Origin: a virus
Strand: one strand, 5' to 3'
DNA length: 35,862 nt
Virus record (IMG/VR): IMGVR_UViG_3300047496_000075
Location: 1 to 35,862 of that record
This document shows, one piece after another, positions 3,530 to 33,280 of the stretch. The position numbers were made by a program, and so were the translations under genes. Below the pieces are notes generated by a model. That model was not told the origin of the DNA and ran no database searches. It saw nothing but the letters and a program-made list of their open reading frames with translations. The first letter of the stretch is position 1; each line of letters begins with the position of its first letter.

Positions 3530-3642
3530 ATTTACCTTATTACATAAAAATTTGCTAGTATAATGATTCTTATTTTCAAAATTACTACATTATGAAAACA
3601 ATGTATTTACTTATTTTTATTTTTGGAGATAAGGTTAATATA

Positions 3643-3702
3643 ATCACGAATGAGGACAGAAAGATATAAGACAGTAGGGAAGAGAAGAACCTCATTCGTG
3701 AT
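3643..3702. other. Perfect 13-bp inverted repeat (ATCACGAATGAGG ... CCTCATTCGTGAT) with a 34-nt loop
   Basis: Read directly; lies in the intergenic region just downstream of terL. Confidence 0.5.
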
Positions 3703-3736
3703 CATACATAGATAACCAATGTGAGTATATAATTAA

Positions 3737-5905
3737 TTAGTAATTTGGTAAATCATTTCTAAAGAACTGTGGCATATTTTGTTCGCCATAAATAGCCTCT
3801 CTCTTCATCTTATCAAAATCATTTGATGACATAGAATCTTTTGTCTTAGGTAAAGCTATACATAAGTATCTCATTGCGTCACTATTGCTAACAATTGCGC
3901 CATTTGCTAAAGAAAAATGTCCAGATATTGGCACATTAATACACCACACTTCATGCATTCCCTCTAGTTTTTCTATTTTTTCTACCATAAGATGCTTTGC
4001 AGTTTGGGTGGCAGAACTTTTGGGAATTATTTTTTCTTTGCAAAAGCATAGCTTGCTTTCCACAGAACAAACATTCTCCAATGATTCTAATTTGTTTTTC
4101 CCAACTTTTAATTCGGATTGCATGTTCACTGTGCCATCTTCTTCCAGCTTCACTTCCATGCCATTTAATAGCGGCCTCTCTTGCCTTTTGGCTGAATCCC
4201 TTGTTATTTGGTTTAGGCATTTTTCTATGCTCTCTGGCAGGAAAGCAAACAAGGTTTGAAAGCTTGTTGTTATCTGTGTTACTATCTTTGTGATGAATGT
4301 GGCAATCTGTCGGAATATTACCATAGGCTGAACTCCAGACTTCACGGTGTAACCTTGATCCGAAAGTTCTGTTATAGTATTTTGTTCCTCGATTTTTATA
4401 TATTTTGTTATTAAATGTTTGCGTTGAAACATGTTCGACGATAGGATCTGCGATCCGGATTTCAGGTTCTCTGCAGATATCCATCCTGACTCCGTCAAGA
4501 ATAAATGATCCGGCGTACATCTCACTTTTACACCATCTACAAAAACCACCTGAACTAAGTTCGCATTCTTTCTCATGCTCTTTGAGCCTATGCACTTTTC
4601 CCATCCATTCGCAGTAAGAATCTCTTCATTATCCCTAATACTTATTATAGGACGCATCCCGCTACGCGTCAATACCATTGTATCATGGGCAAAGCAAAAA
4701 TGGCTAAATTTATCGTGTAGTGGATGCGGCTTGTATATTTGTTTTTTGGAATCCCATTCTTGCCTATAGTTTTCAAGAGCCTTGATTAATGGCTTGCAAT
4801 TGTTTTTGTCTATCCAGACTTTATCTAGAGTGGATCTAACAGCCTCAATTCCGTCCACTATTGAAAGATCTGGCGCTATTGTGAAGTCTATGCCTAACTG
4901 CCTAGCTTTCTCAATCCTGGTCAGTCCTGATCCCCATTCTTGAACCTTTACGTCATGTGGTGCTATGAATTTACCATAAAGGTAAGGTTTATTGCGAATT
5001 ACTTGTACATAGTGCTCAAGTCCAACTTTAGAATTCTCATATGTATCAATTATTCTTATTGTTTGACCTATATTCTGAAAGAATATAAGACATGTCGAAT
5101 CTCTCACACCGATATCTATAGCCACATGAACTTTAAACGCTGACTCCCAGTTAACATCTCCAATTTGATTTTTAACTCGCATTTTATCGATATATTTAGC
5201 ATAATATGCACCTTCAACACCCATATCAAAACTGGTATAAAACTCCTGCATAGCAAAGTCTTCAGATATTAGACCCTCAGATATCTCTTTTTGTATTTGA
5301 TGTGGTGTTATATGATCTGTGTCTAGAATTGTTAATTTAGATGCGAACCAATTCTCTGGATTATTAATTGCTATTTGATAGAGCTCCCATAAATGATTCT
5401 TGCCACGAGGCGTTGAAATAAACAATGACCAACCATCATTGCCAAGTAGAATAGGGCGTAGGAATTTATATGCTTGTGGATCTTGTAAGGCATACTCAGA
5501 GAATATAATCCCAATTGGATTAGAACCCATAAGTGAATCTATGTTATCACTCCCGACCAATTGGATTAAAGATCCATTGGTTAATGTGATTTTCATTTGT
5601 TGACTATTAGATGATTGTATTAATTCTTGTGGAATGTAATCAAGAAATCTCACACCTTCAGTTGTAATGGAATCCCATATTACTTTGCGAGCTTGAGAAT
5701 ATTCTGGGAAGACATAATAATATACACCTATCTTGCGTAGAGCTTGCCTTAATAATAGATTAAAAGCACAAACGTCTTTGCCTGCTCTGCGGGGCCAAAT
5801 ACACAGTAGGCGCTTATATTTACCAGATTCTAATGCATGACAAAGTGGGAGCTGGTATGGCCTTGGATGGAAGCGATTAAGATGTATTTTTGTTTCAATC
5901 TTCAT
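3737..5905 (-). CDS. terL: Terminase large subunit, intein-containing precursor (722 aa; 451 aa after splicing)
   Basis: Walker A-like PRRAGKD and Walker B-like IGIIFSEY. The nuclease-domain motif HDKFSHF|SDAMRYL is restored when aa 404-674 are removed. Confidence 0.88.
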   Translation of the reverse strand: MKIETKIHLNRFHPRPYQLPLCHALESGKYKRLLCIWPRRAGKDVCAFNLLLRQALRKIGVYYYVFPEYSQARKVIWDSITTEGVRFLDYIPQELIQSSNSQQMKITLTNGSLIQLVGSDNIDSLMGSNPIGIIFSEYALQDPQAYKFLRPILLGNDGWSLFISTPRGKNHLWELYQIAINNPENWFASKLTILDTDHITPHQIQKEISEGLISEDFAMQEFYTSFDMGVEGAYYAKYIDKMRVKNQIGDVNWESAFKVHVAIDIGVRDSTCLIFFQNIGQTIRIIDTYENSKVGLEHYVQVIRNKPYLYGKFIAPHDVKVQEWGSGLTRIEKARQLGIDFTIAPDLSIVDGIEAVRSTLDKVWIDKNNCKPLIKALENYRQEWDSKKQIYKPHPLHDKFSHFCFAHDTMVLTRSGMRPIISIRDNEEILTANGWEKCIGSKSMRKNANLVQVVFVDGVKVRCTPDHLFLTESGWISAENLKSGSQILSSNMFQRKHLITKYIKIEEQNTITELSDQGYTVKSGVQPMVIFRQIATFITKIVTQITTSFQTLFAFLPESIEKCLNQITRDSAKRQERPLLNGMEVKLEEDGTVNMQSELKVGKNKLESLENVCSVESKLCFCKEKIIPKSSATQTAKHLMVEKIEKLEGMHEVWCINVPISGHFSLANGAIVSNSDAMRYLCIALPKTKDSMSSNDFDKMKREAIYGEQNMPQFFRNDLPNY
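3884..4696 (-). mobile_element. Intein in terL (Cys404..Asn674, +1 Ser675)
   Basis: Block A CFAHDTMVLT, block B CTPDHLFLT, blocks F/G VWCINVPISGHFSLANGAIVSN|S. Codon positions were checked against the nucleotides. Confidence 0.8.
3951..4604 (-). CDS. HNH homing endonuclease, nested inside the intein but in a different frame from terL
   Basis: LHREVW..GNIPTDCHIHHKDSNTDNNKLSNLVCFPAREH forms the H-N-H core. The C-terminus has CLFCGK...FCHPNC zinc-ribbon-like Cys pairs. The frame offset from terL is 2. The true start may be internal (M29). Confidence 0.72.
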   Translation of the reverse strand: MGKVHRLKEHEKECELSSGGFCRWCKSEMYAGSFILDGVRMDICREPEIRIADPIVEHVSTQTFNNKIYKNRGTKYYNRTFGSRLHREVWSSAYGNIPTDCHIHHKDSNTDNNKLSNLVCFPAREHRKMPKPNNKGFSQKAREAAIKWHGSEAGRRWHSEHAIRIKSWEKQIRIIGECLFCGKQAMLLQRKNNSQKFCHPNCKASYGRKNRKTRGNA

Positions 5906-6153
5906 TTATCATCGCATTTATAATGATTACAAAGTTTAATCTGATAAGTTATATCCCTAATATAATCTACAAAATCCGTATATTTTACATAAAGCATTGA
6001 TTTATGACAACCAATACACATCTTACTTAATAGATATTTTATTAATTCTTCTTGAAACTCAATCTCAGTCCTAAAATAGAATTCCTCGGGAAAGGCGCAG
6101 ATATCAAATCTATCCATATCAATAACTGGATGGATCTTGGTTTCAATCTTCAT
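5902..6153 (-). CDS. Hypothetical protein (83 aa) starting MKIETKIH, the same 8 aa as TerL
   Basis: Its stop overlaps the terL ATG (ATGA). The N-terminal 8 aa match TerL despite 3 synonymous differences. Confidence 0.5.
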   Translation of the reverse strand: MKIETKIHPVIDMDRFDICAFPEEFYFRTEIEFQEELIKYLLSKMCIGCHKSMLYVKYTDFVDYIRDITYQIKLCNHYKCDDK

Positions 6154-30472: not shown

Positions 30473-30988
30473 CTAAGCTAATGTAGCGCGTAAATTGATT
30501 ACCCAAAGGTCATTAGTGATCCTTGGAACTTCCGCAAATTTATAACCAACTGAAGCATTTAATGCTAAAGGTCCGTCATATATTGGTGGTCTATATATAA
30601 AAGACGCACTGTATCCGTCTTGTTCTATACAAGCATAAGCTTCCATACCAACGCAGAATATATTGTATACTGTTGCGCCTAATGAAGAAGCATTTAAACT
30701 TGTTGAACCAATACTGGAAATCAAGAATCTCAAGTTGCCAATAGCACCCCATTCTGAACGCAAGGCATTCATAGGAGCTGGATATTGGTTCTTTTGAATG
30801 AATCCAGCAACGTTATCCAAGTTTCCGGTTAAGTTTGTTGAACATAATGCAAAATATGCATCACGAACAGGCGCTGTACCGAATTTATCTTCACCTTCAA
30901 TGTTATCCATGATTGTATATGCATTATTATTCAATAAAGCACGAACAACTGTATCAACATCGGTTCTGGTTATTTCTGTAGGAACGTC
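30473..30988 (-). CDS. Major capsid protein, exon 4 (DVPTEITRTD...RATLA*)
   Basis: In frame with exon 3 once intron 3 is removed. The C-terminal pattern resembles HK97-fold capsid proteins of the N4 gp56 type. Confidence 0.75.
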   Translation of the reverse strand, partial: DVPTEITRTDVDTVVRALLNNNAYTIMDNIEGEDKFGTAPVRDAYFALCSTNLTGNLDNVAGFIQKNQYPAPMNALRSEWGAIGNLRFLISSIGSTSLNASSLGATVYNIFCVGMEAYACIEQDGYSASFIYRPPIYDGPLALNASVGYKFAEVPRITNDLWVINLRATLA

Positions 30989-31002
30989 CAATCTATTACT
31001 TT

Positions 31003-31031
31003 TTGACTTAAATTTATATATTTGTTATCAT
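31003..31031 (+). promoter_or_regulatory. Sigma70-like promoter TTGACT-17 nt-TATCAT, ending 6 nt (31032..31037) before the LAGLIDADG ATG
   Basis: Read directly. There is no Shine-Dalgarno between the -10 and the ATG, which suggests a leaderless mRNA. Confidence 0.35.
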
Positions 31032-31037
31032 ATAATT

Positions 31038-31955
31038 ATGAAACAAATTACTACAAATACCGATCTTGCATATTTCGCTGGTTACATTGATGGAGATGGA
31101 TGTTTTTATATTGGTAAATATATCGATAAGAAAACCAAGCGCATTAAATATCAATCCAGACTTATTATATCTTCTACAAATAGAGATATTTTTAAGCATT
31201 TTAAAACTTTGTATGGTGGAATTATTAGAATGTCCGATAATAGGATTAAATATCCAGGACAAAAACCACAATATCAATTTATAATTTCTGGAAATTCTGC
31301 TAGTAAAATTACTGATAAAATAACAAATATTTTGCATGAAAAACGATTCCAGGCCGACTTTTTTGTAAAGTTTAGCAATACAAAAAGCAAATCCCAAAAA
31401 GATTATTTTATTGATCTTTTTCATGATATTAAAGAACATTTTTATGTTTCTAAAGATAGAATATATCTTATTAAGAACGGTTCTTATCGCATAACTCCCA
31501 AAGAAGAAGACTATGCCTATCTTGCTGGATTTATAGATGCTGAATGCTCTTTGGGTATACAACATTATAAACCGAAAAATAAACCCAATCAGGTTTATAA
31601 AATTTACCTGAAATGCAATAACACTCAATCTCCAATTTTTCATTGGCTTTACGAAAGATTCGGTGGTCAGTTGCAATTTATAAATCGAAACAATAAAAAT
31701 ATTAATCATAAAGACCAGATAATGTGGACCCTCAGCGGAAAAGCTCTTTCTCAAATACTTCCATACATTTTTAAATATATCCAATATAAAAAACCAGTTT
31801 GCGAACAACTCATGAAATTCGATGCCACTACTCTTAAAAATGGCGGCGCAAGACACACGGAAAAATTCCGGGAATCCTATGCTAAAATTATTAAAGAGCG
31901 AGAATTGATTATTCATGAAGTCCATCGTCTCAACAAAAAAGGTATTCCAATTTAA
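31038..31955 (+). CDS. Double-motif LAGLIDADG homing endonuclease (305 aa)
   Basis: LAYFAGYIDGDGCF and YAYLAGFIDAECSL motifs. The start is set at the first Met after the antisense capsid exon. Confidence 0.85.
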   Translation: MKQITTNTDLAYFAGYIDGDGCFYIGKYIDKKTKRIKYQSRLIISSTNRDIFKHFKTLYGGIIRMSDNRIKYPGQKPQYQFIISGNSASKITDKITNILHEKRFQADFFVKFSNTKSKSQKDYFIDLFHDIKEHFYVSKDRIYLIKNGSYRITPKEEDYAYLAGFIDAECSLGIQHYKPKNKPNQVYKIYLKCNNTQSPIFHWLYERFGGQLQFINRNNKNINHKDQIMWTLSGKALSQILPYIFKYIQYKKPVCEQLMKFDATTLKNGGARHTEKFRESYAKIIKERELIIHEVHRLNKKGIPI

Positions 31956-32138
31956 GCGGGTAGTCATTTCTGCTACCTCTCATACTTATCGCATGAGGCT
32001 CGACTATCGCATCCTCAATAGAGGTCTTCTTGTTTAGTCTGTCAGGCTGTATTTAAACTTGCCCCTTGTTGCCGGTTAGCTTATTGCCACTTCGGGTTCC
32101 AAGTCAATTAAAGAAGATTTTAAAACGGCAACATTTCT

Positions 32139-32417
32139 ACCGTTTACACCACCGGTGCAATTTATAAACGCAGCAGTAGCGGCCAACATGTCTCTTGTTA
32201 ACTGATCCTCTGTTTGTCTTAAACTTACACCTAATCTAGCCGCACATTCATTAAGAACAGGGTCTTGGTTTTGCAGGGTTACTTGTTCATTCAATTGAAC
32301 GTATGTCCCATAAAAACTAATTTTAGCATCAATATCAACAGCTGTTAAATTCTGAGCAGGAGGAGTTACACCAGTATTACCTAGAGGCACCATTGCTGTA
32401 TTTAACGGGTTATATCT
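32139..32417 (-). CDS. Major capsid protein, exon 3 (RYNPLNTAMVPLGNTGVTPP...CTGGVNG)
   Basis: 93 codons; boundaries fixed by the P1 helix and the terminal G of intron 2. Confidence 0.75.
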
Positions 32418-32810
32418 CATTTTTTGTTACTATTTGAAATTTATTCAAACGGGAATGCCTATTGCACATTCCTCACTGTGTTTCCACAATGTTCAGAGCA
32501 CCGCATCACTTTTCAGTGTTTTCTCGCTTGCTACGTTCAGGCTGATCGGGTATTAATTTAGTCCATGAATTATTTTTATATTTTTTCATCCAAATAGTAT
32601 CGCTATCAGTATTTATCCAAAATGCTGTATCTACTAAATCCAATTTATCATTTGAATTTGGATTTCTTTTGGATATTATCGTATTACTTGGAATATAATC
32701 ACATTTTTTATTAAACCAATTAATCATAATCTTGCCCCTTGTTGTCTACGACTTTACGTTTAGAGTTCCAAGTCTATCAGAGAAAATTTTAAATGCGCAG
32801 ATTTTTGTTT
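32418..32810 (-). mobile_element. Group I intron 2 of the capsid gene (393 nt)
   Basis: P1 pairs AAUGCGU (32817..32811) with GCGCAUU (32798..32792), ending in U.G. The intron ends ...AAAAUG. It shares 65-nt and 60-nt blocks identically with intron 1. Confidence 0.72.
32506..32727 (-). CDS. Intron 2 ORF (73 aa), no recognisable endonuclease motif
   Basis: Starts 7 nt after the AAGGGG of the intron core. The last 12 codons (QPERSKRENTEK) are encoded by conserved intron core sequence. Confidence 0.5.
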   Translation of the reverse strand: MINWFNKKCDYIPSNTIISKRNPNSNDKLDLVDTAFWINTDSDTIWMKKYKNNSWTKLIPDQPERSKRENTEK

Positions 32811-32927: not shown

Positions 32928-33280
32928 CATTCTGTTACTTTTGTGACCTATTTCTAGGCGAGGAAGCCTATTGCACTTCCCTCATTGCATTTCTACAATG
33001 TTCAGAGCACCGCATCACTTTTCAGTGTTTTCTCGCTTGCTACGTTCAGGCTGAAGAAAATCATTTAAAAATGCTTTATAATCAACTTGATATAATCCCT
33101 CACAGAATTCGCAAACAATATGATGATAATCATCTATATTAAATGCCTTTCCGTCTACAAAATATACCTTATCACATCGTTCACATTTATATTGATTCAT
33201 AATCTTGCCCCTTGTTGTCTACGACTTTACGTTTAGAGTTCCAAGTCTATCAGAGAAAATTTAACGCGCCCATACATTTT
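32928..33280 (-). mobile_element. Group I intron 1 of the capsid gene (353 nt)
   Basis: P1 pairs GCGCCU (33286..33281) with GGGCGC (33271..33266), ending in U.G. The intron ends ...AGAAUG. Confidence 0.7.
33015..33200 (-). CDS. Intron 1 ORF (61 aa), zinc-ribbon-like (CERC...CEFC)
   Basis: Same insertion point and same 12-aa C-terminal tail as the intron 2 ORF. Confidence 0.5.
   Translation of the reverse strand: MNQYKCERCDKVYFVDGKAFNIDDYHHIVCEFCEGLYQVDYKAFLNDFLQPERSKRENTEK

Follow-up and report, generated by a model that had tools for sequence, protein, structure and literature searches.

How does an essential phage gene accommodate a long insertion within a conserved motif, and what does such an insertion encode? 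These questions are raised by the gene for the terminase large subunit (TerL) in the IMG/VR virus record IMGVR_UViG_3300047496_000075, of which positions 1 to 35,862 were analyzed; this whole stretch of 35,862 nucleotides is called the window here. An earlier reading, made by a model from the letters and their open reading frames (the sequence-only reading), had described residues 404-674 of TerL as an intein. The analysis presented here indicates that the segment is probably a composite element, in which an intein in the TerL nuclease motif overlaps a gene for an HNH homing endonuclease that lies in the -1 frame and is expressed separately.

The insertion in the TerL gene

The TerL gene lies on the minus strand and is divided by the insertion in the following way.

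3737..5905, minus strand: TerL precursor open reading frame (ORF), 722 amino acids plus stop, from the ORF list; the joined exteins match PHROG 2
4697..5905, minus strand: N-extein, TerL residues 1-403, ATPase and most of the nuclease domain, with the C-terminal end ...LHDKFSHF
3884..4696, minus strand: intein, TerL residues 404-674, 271 amino acids, from Cys1 to Asn271, then Ser at the +1 position
3740..3883, minus strand: C-extein, TerL residues 675-722, starting SDAMRYL, with Asp676, Arg679 and Tyr680 invariant

The inserted residues read CFAHDTMVLT ... CTPDHLFLT ... GHFSLANGAIVSN and are followed by Ser675. Excision of the insert in silico joins ...HDKFSHF to SDAMRYL... in a product of 451 amino acids, and this joined TerL matches PHROG 2 (terminase large subunit) at 3.9e-29 over residues 10-425, with the match crossing the junction. 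The exact boundaries, the Cys start, the TxxH block, the Ser that follows and the length of the restored protein are all as the sequence-only reading had described them.

These observations support the conserved C-terminal nuclease motif of TerL, HD..SH/xDAxRY (a slash marks the insertion point here and below), as the site of insertion. Asp676 is probably the catalytic Asp of the nuclease, judging from its invariance and from the position of the domain in cultured-phage homologues, in which the same intein lies directly after the Pfam RNaseH-like terminase domain. A sequence search of the Protein Data Bank (PDB) with the spliced TerL gave a match limited to one ATPase segment. Megablast of the TerL region against cultured phages returned no match, and the closest TerL proteins of cultured phages are 35-43% identical. 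In related loci, a P22-type portal gene comes after TerL.

The splicing domain

Within the insert, the sequence features and the predicted structure divide the TerL frame into three parts.

4433..4696, minus strand: N-terminal Hint half, intein residues 1-88, with block A (CFAHDT) and block B (CTPDH); pLDDT (predicted local distance difference test) 92-96; aligns with gp41-1 residues 9-104
4001..4432, minus strand: linker in the TerL frame, intein residues 89-232, a shadow translation; open frame, no family match, pLDDT 32-55
3884..4000, minus strand: C-terminal Hint part, intein residues 233-271, with blocks F and G (MHEVWCINVPISGHFSLANGAIVSN); pLDDT 92-94; aligns with gp41-1 residues 89-125

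Comparison with intein profiles, which the sequence-only reading had proposed as a check, gave a match to Pfam Intein_splicing with an E value of 9.7e-09 and 35.6 bits, 0.2 below the gathering score of 35.8. The top PDB sequence match is the gp41-1 intein (E 9.4e-06), with residues 6-106 assigned to the N part and residues 233-268 to the C part. An AlphaFold model of the intein, built on an alignment of 38 homologues, has pLDDT of 92-96 for residues 1-88 and 92-94 for residues 233-271 at its two ends. When this model was used in Foldseek, gp41-1 was matched with a target TM-score of 0.84 and a root-mean-square deviation of 2.3, and nearly all of the 44 PDB matches at E <= 0.001 were inteins or Hint domains.

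The residues expected at the splice junctions are present. Cys1, Thr61, His64 and Asn271 of the intein are invariant in the 38 sequences (alignment A4). Cys404 supplies the first-residue nucleophile, T464-P-D-H467 forms the block B TxxH (found in 64/64 loci that were matched by motif search), and Asn674 followed by Ser675 provides the C-terminal Asn with an allowed +1 residue. Across 70 distinct family members, the terminal Asn was found wherever the C-terminal motif was matched, and the +1 position holds Cys in 46 and Ser in 24, where intein-less alleles have Ala. Less usual is the penultimate residue, which is Ser673 in the window, as had been pointed out from the sequence alone. His occupies this position in 62 of the 70 members, Ser in 3, Lys in 3 and Arg in 2, which makes Ser a minority state without being unique to the window. 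A penultimate His is common in inteins and not obligatory, and splicing by inteins that lack it is documented.

The Cys of block F (VWCINV, codon 3937..3939) is shared by the window and 41/56 family members, with Asp in 13, while Cys1 is kept. A class 3 intein was considered because of this block F Cys and rejected, as Cys1 is retained, Phe stands two residues after the block B His and Val stands before the penultimate residue. Class 3 inteins have a WCT triplet (Trp B:12, Cys F:4 and Thr G:5) and lack a nucleophile at position 1.

From these features we infer a class-1-type Hint intein, whose splicing activity is predicted because TerL is essential and the junction residues are intact. In the model, the splicing domain is limited to about 88 N-terminal and 39 C-terminal residues, with about 145 residues between them. 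For this intervening part (intein residues ~89-232), Pfam and PHROG gave no family match to the TerL-frame translation, endonuclease families included, and the LAGLIDADG or HNH domain that a canonical large intein has in frame between blocks B and F was not found. The view that all 271 residues form an intein therefore holds for the Hint domain at the nuclease motif and not for the middle ~145 residues, which are the shadow translation of another gene.

A nested HNH endonuclease gene

The other gene is found on the same strand in a different frame, together with motifs that are typical of its family.

3951..4604, minus strand: nested HNH ORF, 217 amino acids plus stop, in the -1 (+2) frame relative to TerL; Pfam HNH_3, PHROG 15471
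4224..4355, minus strand: HNH_3 catalytic core, ORF residues 84-127, LHREVW...CHIHHKD...NN...NL...EH, from Pfam HNH_3
3999..4073, minus strand: zinc-finger-like motif CxxC...CxxxC, ORF residues 178-202, with conserved Cys

This frame is open for 217 codons, and the third frame contains dozens of stops. The only Pfam match of the ORF is HNH_3 (E 4e-13, 49.2 bits, cut-off 24.8), with no endonuclease VII-like match (IPR004211); PHROG 15471 (HNH endonuclease) is matched at 6e-24 over residues 61-211. In an alignment of 36 sequences that includes the window (alignment A3), C101, H102, H104, H105, N117 and H126 of the HNH motif and C178, C181, C198 and C202 of the zinc-finger motif are invariant. 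An AlphaFold model of the protein has a mean pLDDT of 81, with most of the core residues 55-217 between 85 and 97 and low confidence for the N-terminal 45 amino acids, and a profile search of the PDB found only weak zinc-ribbon matches (L24e zinc ribbon). The ORF runs about 45 codons back into the coding sequence of the N-terminal splicing domain, and the N-terminal ~60 residues of the nested protein have no counterpart in free-standing HNH relatives. In free-standing relatives and in some longer ones (P0152-P0155, P0130, P0146, P0148 and P0151) the CxxC...FCSxxC module is repeated two to four times, and the window's HNH has one copy. Plus-strand ORFs of 64-124 codons also lie antisense to the intein and HNH region (3885..4259, 3997..4293, 4405..4617 and 4575..4769), and are taken to be by-products of a doubly constrained sequence.

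The nested layout is not peculiar to the window, and the same nesting with the same frame offset was observed in 84/84 related loci. A scan of viral contigs with the HNH alignment identified 219 that encode a relative, and 80 loci were kept. In 80/80 of these a longer ORF encloses the HNH ORF (212-336 codons open) at the same offset, and this longer ORF is ~690-780 amino acids where the TerL-plus-intein gene is complete on the contig. Three further loci that were found by way of TerL homologues (L001-L003) have an HNH ORF of 216-225 codons in the same relative frame in 3/3 cases. Among cultured phages, tblastn found HNH relatives of two kinds: free-standing genes annotated as HNH endonucleases, for example in Salmonella phage Shemara, Pseudomonas phage PAE1 and Lactobacillus phage CL2, and unannotated ones beneath genes annotated only as TerL. 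Four of the latter were examined.

L086: Clostridium phage phiCDHM19 (443..2842)
L087: Tetrasphaera phage TJE1
L088: Rhodobacteraceae phage LS06-2018-MD07
L089: Acinetobacter phage Highwayman

In 4/4 of these TerLs an HNH_3 ORF lies in the -1 frame, and the TerL itself has Hint and Intein_splicing matches. The genomes are finished, and the gene is annotated merely as terminase large subunit. In phiCDHM19 and Highwayman the Pfam RNaseH-like terminase domain was detected and the Hint match starts directly after it. The four represent two Pfam TerL types, Terminase_6N and Terminase_3, and the penultimate intein residue is Ser in 3/4.

Selection on the two frames

A codon alignment of 58 complete loci was used to compare variability at each codon position. 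In the exteins and in both Hint parts, position 3 of the TerL frame is the most variable, as is usual for a coding frame. Between TerL residues ~485 and 637 the most variable is position 2 of the TerL frame, at 0.60 vs 0.31 for position 1 and 0.38 for position 3, and this position corresponds to codon position 3 of the HNH frame. The switch between frames is sharp at both ends. In this middle region, amino acid identity in the TerL frame is 28% in the family, and the HNH-frame proteins are 48-68% identical to that of the window in a comparison of four sequences. Since the most variable site is the third position of HNH codons, the middle of the intein is read as an HNH gene; the pattern shows, as judged from these alignments, selection acting on the HNH frame, with the TerL frame merely kept free of stops. 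Synonymous shuffles of the HNH codons gave 0.2-3.7 expected TerL-frame stops per locus.

Candidate signals for expression within the intein coding sequence

Several candidate signals for independent expression of the HNH gene are located within the intein coding sequence.

4644..4672, minus strand: sigma-70-like promoter, TTGACG, 17 nucleotides, TATAAT; inside the N-terminal Hint coding sequence, ~40 nucleotides upstream of the first HNH ATG
4602..4604, minus strand: first HNH ATG, candidate start, with a weak Shine-Dalgarno sequence in the window
4482..4493, minus strand: alternative candidate start, GGAG (4493-4490), 5 nucleotides, ATG (4484-4482), where selection switches to the HNH frame

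The promoter-like site scores 11/12 against the sigma-70 consensus, from which the promoter type of the host may differ, and is the best in 3600..6100. When aligned across the 58 loci, it scores at least 10/12 in 52. The codons that make up this site are strongly biased in comparison with the same codons in the exteins.

Leu: TTG in 52/55 (15% in exteins)
Arg: CGT in 47/48 (16% in exteins)
Gly: GGA in 49/57 (21% in exteins)
Ile: ATA in 53/56 (28% in exteins)

Synonymous diversity over longer regions was also compared.

Exteins: 0.64
C-terminal Hint: 0.58
N-terminal Hint: 0.43-0.45
TerL residues 462-481: 0.32

The reduced synonymous diversity of the N-terminal Hint would fit extra constraints on this part of the sequence. 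A hairpin (GACGC...GCGTC) in the promoter spacer of the window was considered and dropped, as it is not conserved in other loci. In phiCDHM19, a perfect TTGACA-17-TATAAT lies immediately before the HNH ORF (L086 2006..2034).

Downstream of the promoter-like site, at the equivalent of TerL residue 432, 33/58 loci have an ATG with GGAG or GGAGG ahead of it; the clade to which the window belongs lacks a Shine-Dalgarno sequence at this point. These embedded signals lead to the prediction that the HNH endonuclease is independently transcribed and translated.

Empty sites, distribution, and mobility

A protein search gave 3289 TerL homologues. Many are about 451 amino acids long and lack the insert, and many others are about 720-730 amino acids with an insert at the same place. 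Alignment with intein-less homologues was the second check proposed by the sequence-only reading, and it agreed with the excision described above: P0003 is 91% identical in amino acids to the TerL of the window and P0013 is 87% identical. A direct codon-for-codon comparison of the junction was made with P0003/L084, which has 451 codons, is colinear with the window minus 3884..4696 without gaps, and is 80% identical in nucleotides. Its junction reads SHF/ADAMRYL where the window has SHF, the intein, and SDAMRYL. The DNA of the P0003-type empty allele at the insertion point is ...TCACACTTT/GCTGATGCT..., that is, ...CACTTT/GCTGATGCT....

Hint domains are ~70-74% identical between loci whose exteins are 18-21% identical, and the correlation of extein with Hint identity is weak (r = 0.25). 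Judged from pairwise identities, the history of the intein appears to be decoupled from that of its host gene, and its distribution is sporadic. The register of insertion shifts by 1-4 residues within the motif HDW-SH-x-ADAxRY among L004-L083, with the variants ...SHx/(S or C)DAxRY, ...HDW/(C or S)SHxADAxR and ...SH/(C or S)ADAFRY. This sliding of the register, the decoupled histories and the existence of free-standing HNH relatives fit a homing element whose origin was the invasion of a mini-intein by a free-standing HNH gene. Some TerLs of ~1050-1200 amino acids (P0006, P0037, P0062 and P0111) have two inteins each, a LAGLIDADG-type intein in the N-terminal half and the ~270-residue intein at the nuclease site.

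Explanations for the composite element

The composite element would function by a division of roles, in which the intein makes the insertion harmless to an essential gene and the HNH gene makes it mobile. In the TerL frame, a mini-intein-like Hint domain (~88 + 39 residues) would be joined by a stop-free linker of ~145 residues that has no conserved sequence. After translation the intein would excise itself and the exteins would be ligated to give the TerL of 451 amino acids. The HNH endonuclease would most likely be produced on its own, under a promoter and a start codon embedded in the intein coding sequence. It would then most likely cut intein-less alleles of TerL during co-infection, and the repair that follows would copy the whole element, intein and HNH gene, and with it the codon for the +1 Ser or Cys.

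Other explanations place the HNH ORF in a different relationship to the intein. An ordinary large intein with an in-frame endonuclease could give this appearance if the -1 HNH ORF were the product of compensating frameshift errors or a chance ORF. Phages are known to have inteins with an HNH domain in frame (literature cited in bioRxiv 10.1101/2025.01.02.630785), and one metagenomic contig alone could contain indel errors. However, 84/84 independent loci, drawn from many samples, and the four finished phage genomes all have the identical offset, and the TerL frame is open in every one; with no in-frame endonuclease domain in any family member tested, and with codon-position variability that switches cleanly, an artefact of frame is extremely improbable. 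Production of the HNH by programmed -1 frameshifting, as a fusion of N-extein, N-terminal Hint and HNH, takes up the observation that the HNH frame is the -1 frame and is open for ~45 codons upstream of the HNH-selected region in every locus. A search of TerL residues 420-495 in the 58 loci found no position-conserved slippery heptamer of the form X_XXY_YYZ, and the conserved promoter-like element and the Shine-Dalgarno-plus-ATG signals are present instead, so that frameshifting is considered highly unlikely. Removal at the RNA level is suggested by phage group I introns, which often carry HNH ORFs, and the insert might also simply be retained. Against both, the insert is in frame and stop-free, and it has a high-confidence Hint fold and all of the splice-junction residues; a search with the Rfam intron models found no match in the window at the gathering score or E <= 1, and there is hardly any room for either proposal.

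Two further explanations accept the nested gene and differ in what it does. The HNH ORF could be a decaying relic within a mini-intein that is inherited vertically with a junk linker, the endonuclease being no longer produced or active, at least in the window. Late in the homing cycle an endonuclease is expected to decay, and the lack of a good Shine-Dalgarno sequence at the first ATG of the window and the low model confidence of the N-terminal 45 amino acids would agree with a relic. This is unlikely, as the ORF is intact over 217 codons and keeps all of the catalytic and zinc-binding residues that are invariant in the family; purifying selection on the HNH frame is family-wide, the promoter-like element retains 11/12 in the window, and intein and extein histories are decoupled. 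Alternatively, the nested HNH might have been recruited for a phage function, for example as a partner of terminase in packaging, as in some cos phages. HNH endonucleases that assist terminase are known (cited in PMC11855218), and the gene lies inside that for TerL. Such recruitment is very unlikely, since the whole module is missing from relatives with 87-91% identical TerL and is present in TerLs that are only ~20% identical, which is the pattern of a selfish element and not of a required function.

For the intein with an overlapping and separately expressed HNH gene, several points weigh on the other side. Splicing, HNH expression and cleavage are all inferred from sequence and models. The Pfam splicing profile falls just short of its gathering score, and both the penultimate Ser in place of the usual His and the Cys where many inteins have the block F Asp could slow splicing in the window. 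A Foldseek search with the HNH model found no significant match in the PDB, the best being I-PpoI with an E value of 0.64. The host may use a type of promoter other than sigma-70; in addition, synonymous sites in the 17-nucleotide spacer (4650..4666, minus strand) are near-fixed, which a plain -35/-10 promoter does not need. The first ATG of the window (4604) lacks a good Shine-Dalgarno sequence, leaving two candidate starts. The probability of zero TerL-frame stops after shuffling is 0.0007-0.78 per locus and 0.20 for the window, so that an open frame is not very improbable in any single case. The shuffle is weak per locus because the codon pool is already adapted, and therefore the case for selection rests on all loci being open (84/84) and on the codon-position patterns.

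A wider claim can be made for the family, namely that intein and HNH gene form a stable two-gene selfish module and not a transient intermediate, in which the endonuclease is never fused to the intein and has its own promoter and ribosome-binding site in synonymous sites of the sequence that encodes the splicing domain, and which has kept this arrangement as it spread among several unrelated TerL Pfam families (Terminase_3, Terminase_6 and that of the window). The chances of this claim being right or wrong seem to us evenly balanced.

The capsid region

The sequence-only reading had also placed introns in the capsid gene. This was not confirmed by the search with Rfam models described above, and the gene does look interrupted. 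The major head protein gene appears fragmented on the minus strand within 30473..32420.

32076..32420, minus strand: piece of the major head protein gene
30473..30991, minus strand: piece matching PHROG 1357 (major head protein), profile positions 178-300 of 356
30798..31955, plus strand: ORF of 385 amino acids between the pieces, with two LAGLIDADG-like motifs; PHROG 5046, 9e-37
31014..31967, minus strand: ORF of 317 codons opposite the LAGLIDADG-like ORF, open, no family match

This interruption could be an intron of a type that Rfam does not model, an intein whose endonuclease is antisense, or some other mobile insertion. Two small minus-strand ORFs nearby (32506..32727 and 33015..33200) share the C-terminal peptide PERSKRENTEK, which suggests a repeated DNA segment between genes of the capsid region.

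Biological significance

Inteins are usually described as one polypeptide with a fused endonuclease, and at this locus the genes for splicing and for mobility are separate and interleaved. Packaging in this phage would depend on protein splicing. The large natural data set and the four cultured phages provide a testbed for the acquisition of endonucleases by inteins, and are also suited to studies of the expression of a gene nested within an essential late gene, and of the extent to which a protein is limited by dual coding. Because the HNH gene is missed by gene callers and the locus is annotated as TerL, surveys of called proteins will undercount inteins and homing endonucleases. The stop-free linker of ~145 amino acids shows that arbitrary sequence is tolerated at the endonuclease insertion site of the Hint domain, which is useful for intein engineering. 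If the family does represent a two-gene module, expression of the endonuclease would be decoupled from late expression of TerL, and a promoter, a ribosome-binding site and two proteins would be encoded in the same ~250 bases. The module would then be a living example of a free-standing endonuclease invading a mini-intein, a step that has been proposed for the origin of large inteins.

Comparison with known systems

The TerL inteins of mycobacteriophages, the subject of a 2016 mBio paper by Kelley et al., reportedly lie at conserved catalytic motifs with a sporadic distribution, and are said to contain canonical in-frame endonuclease domains or to be mini-inteins. TerL inteins themselves are well known, and out-of-frame or antisense intein endonucleases were first reported in preprints of 2025-2026. 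The 2025 preprint on actinobacteriophage inteins (Gosselin et al., bioRxiv 10.1101/2025.01.02.630785) describes antisense LAGLIDADG and VSR-like genes in inteins, and also a same-strand endonuclease VII-like gene in another frame. The element described here shares with those inteins a same-strand, out-of-frame endonuclease ORF in the region of endonuclease insertion, an intact splicing domain, an in-frame translation that is unstructured, TerL among the host genes, and a proposed origin by invasion of an intein by a free-standing endonuclease gene. It differs in that the endonuclease is an HNH_3 protein with a zinc finger and is not endonuclease VII-like, and in that the carriers are uncultured phages of ~35-38 kb with a P22-type portal, together with phages of Clostridium, Acinetobacter, Tetrasphaera and Rhodobacteraceae. 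The family is also large (219 viral contigs), and its ORF overlaps the coding sequence of the splicing domain, with a promoter-like element and a Shine-Dalgarno-plus-ATG; the words promoter, ribosome and start codon are absent from the main text of Gosselin et al. A 2026 preprint describes an out-of-frame endonuclease in the cyanobacterial dnaX intein; dnaX is a cellular gene, in contrast to the phage terminase gene that is the host here.

The nearest solved structure, by sequence and by fold, is the split mini-intein gp41-1 (PDB 6QAZ / 6RIZ), and the HNH-bearing linker enters at the point corresponding to about residue 89 of gp41-1. The source of gp41-1 is the group of fractured genes in which a free-standing endonuclease gene lies between two intein halves (Dassa et al. 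2009, PMC2677866). Unlike those genes, both halves are here in one ORF that is open through the endonuclease gene, so splicing is predicted to be in cis rather than in trans. A hidden out-of-frame HNH in a stop-free host gene, with a homing-like distribution, is also a property of the ShiLan domain, found in the DNA methylases of mycobacteriophages as an HNH insertion in another frame (Arsenault et al., Genes 2025, PMC11855218). An insertion of the ShiLan type was considered for the window and rejected, as a complete splicing domain is present. The ShiLan domain has no splicing domain and is thought to be retained in its protein, whereas the HNH gene described here is enclosed in a complete intein, and the essential TerL can thus be restored.

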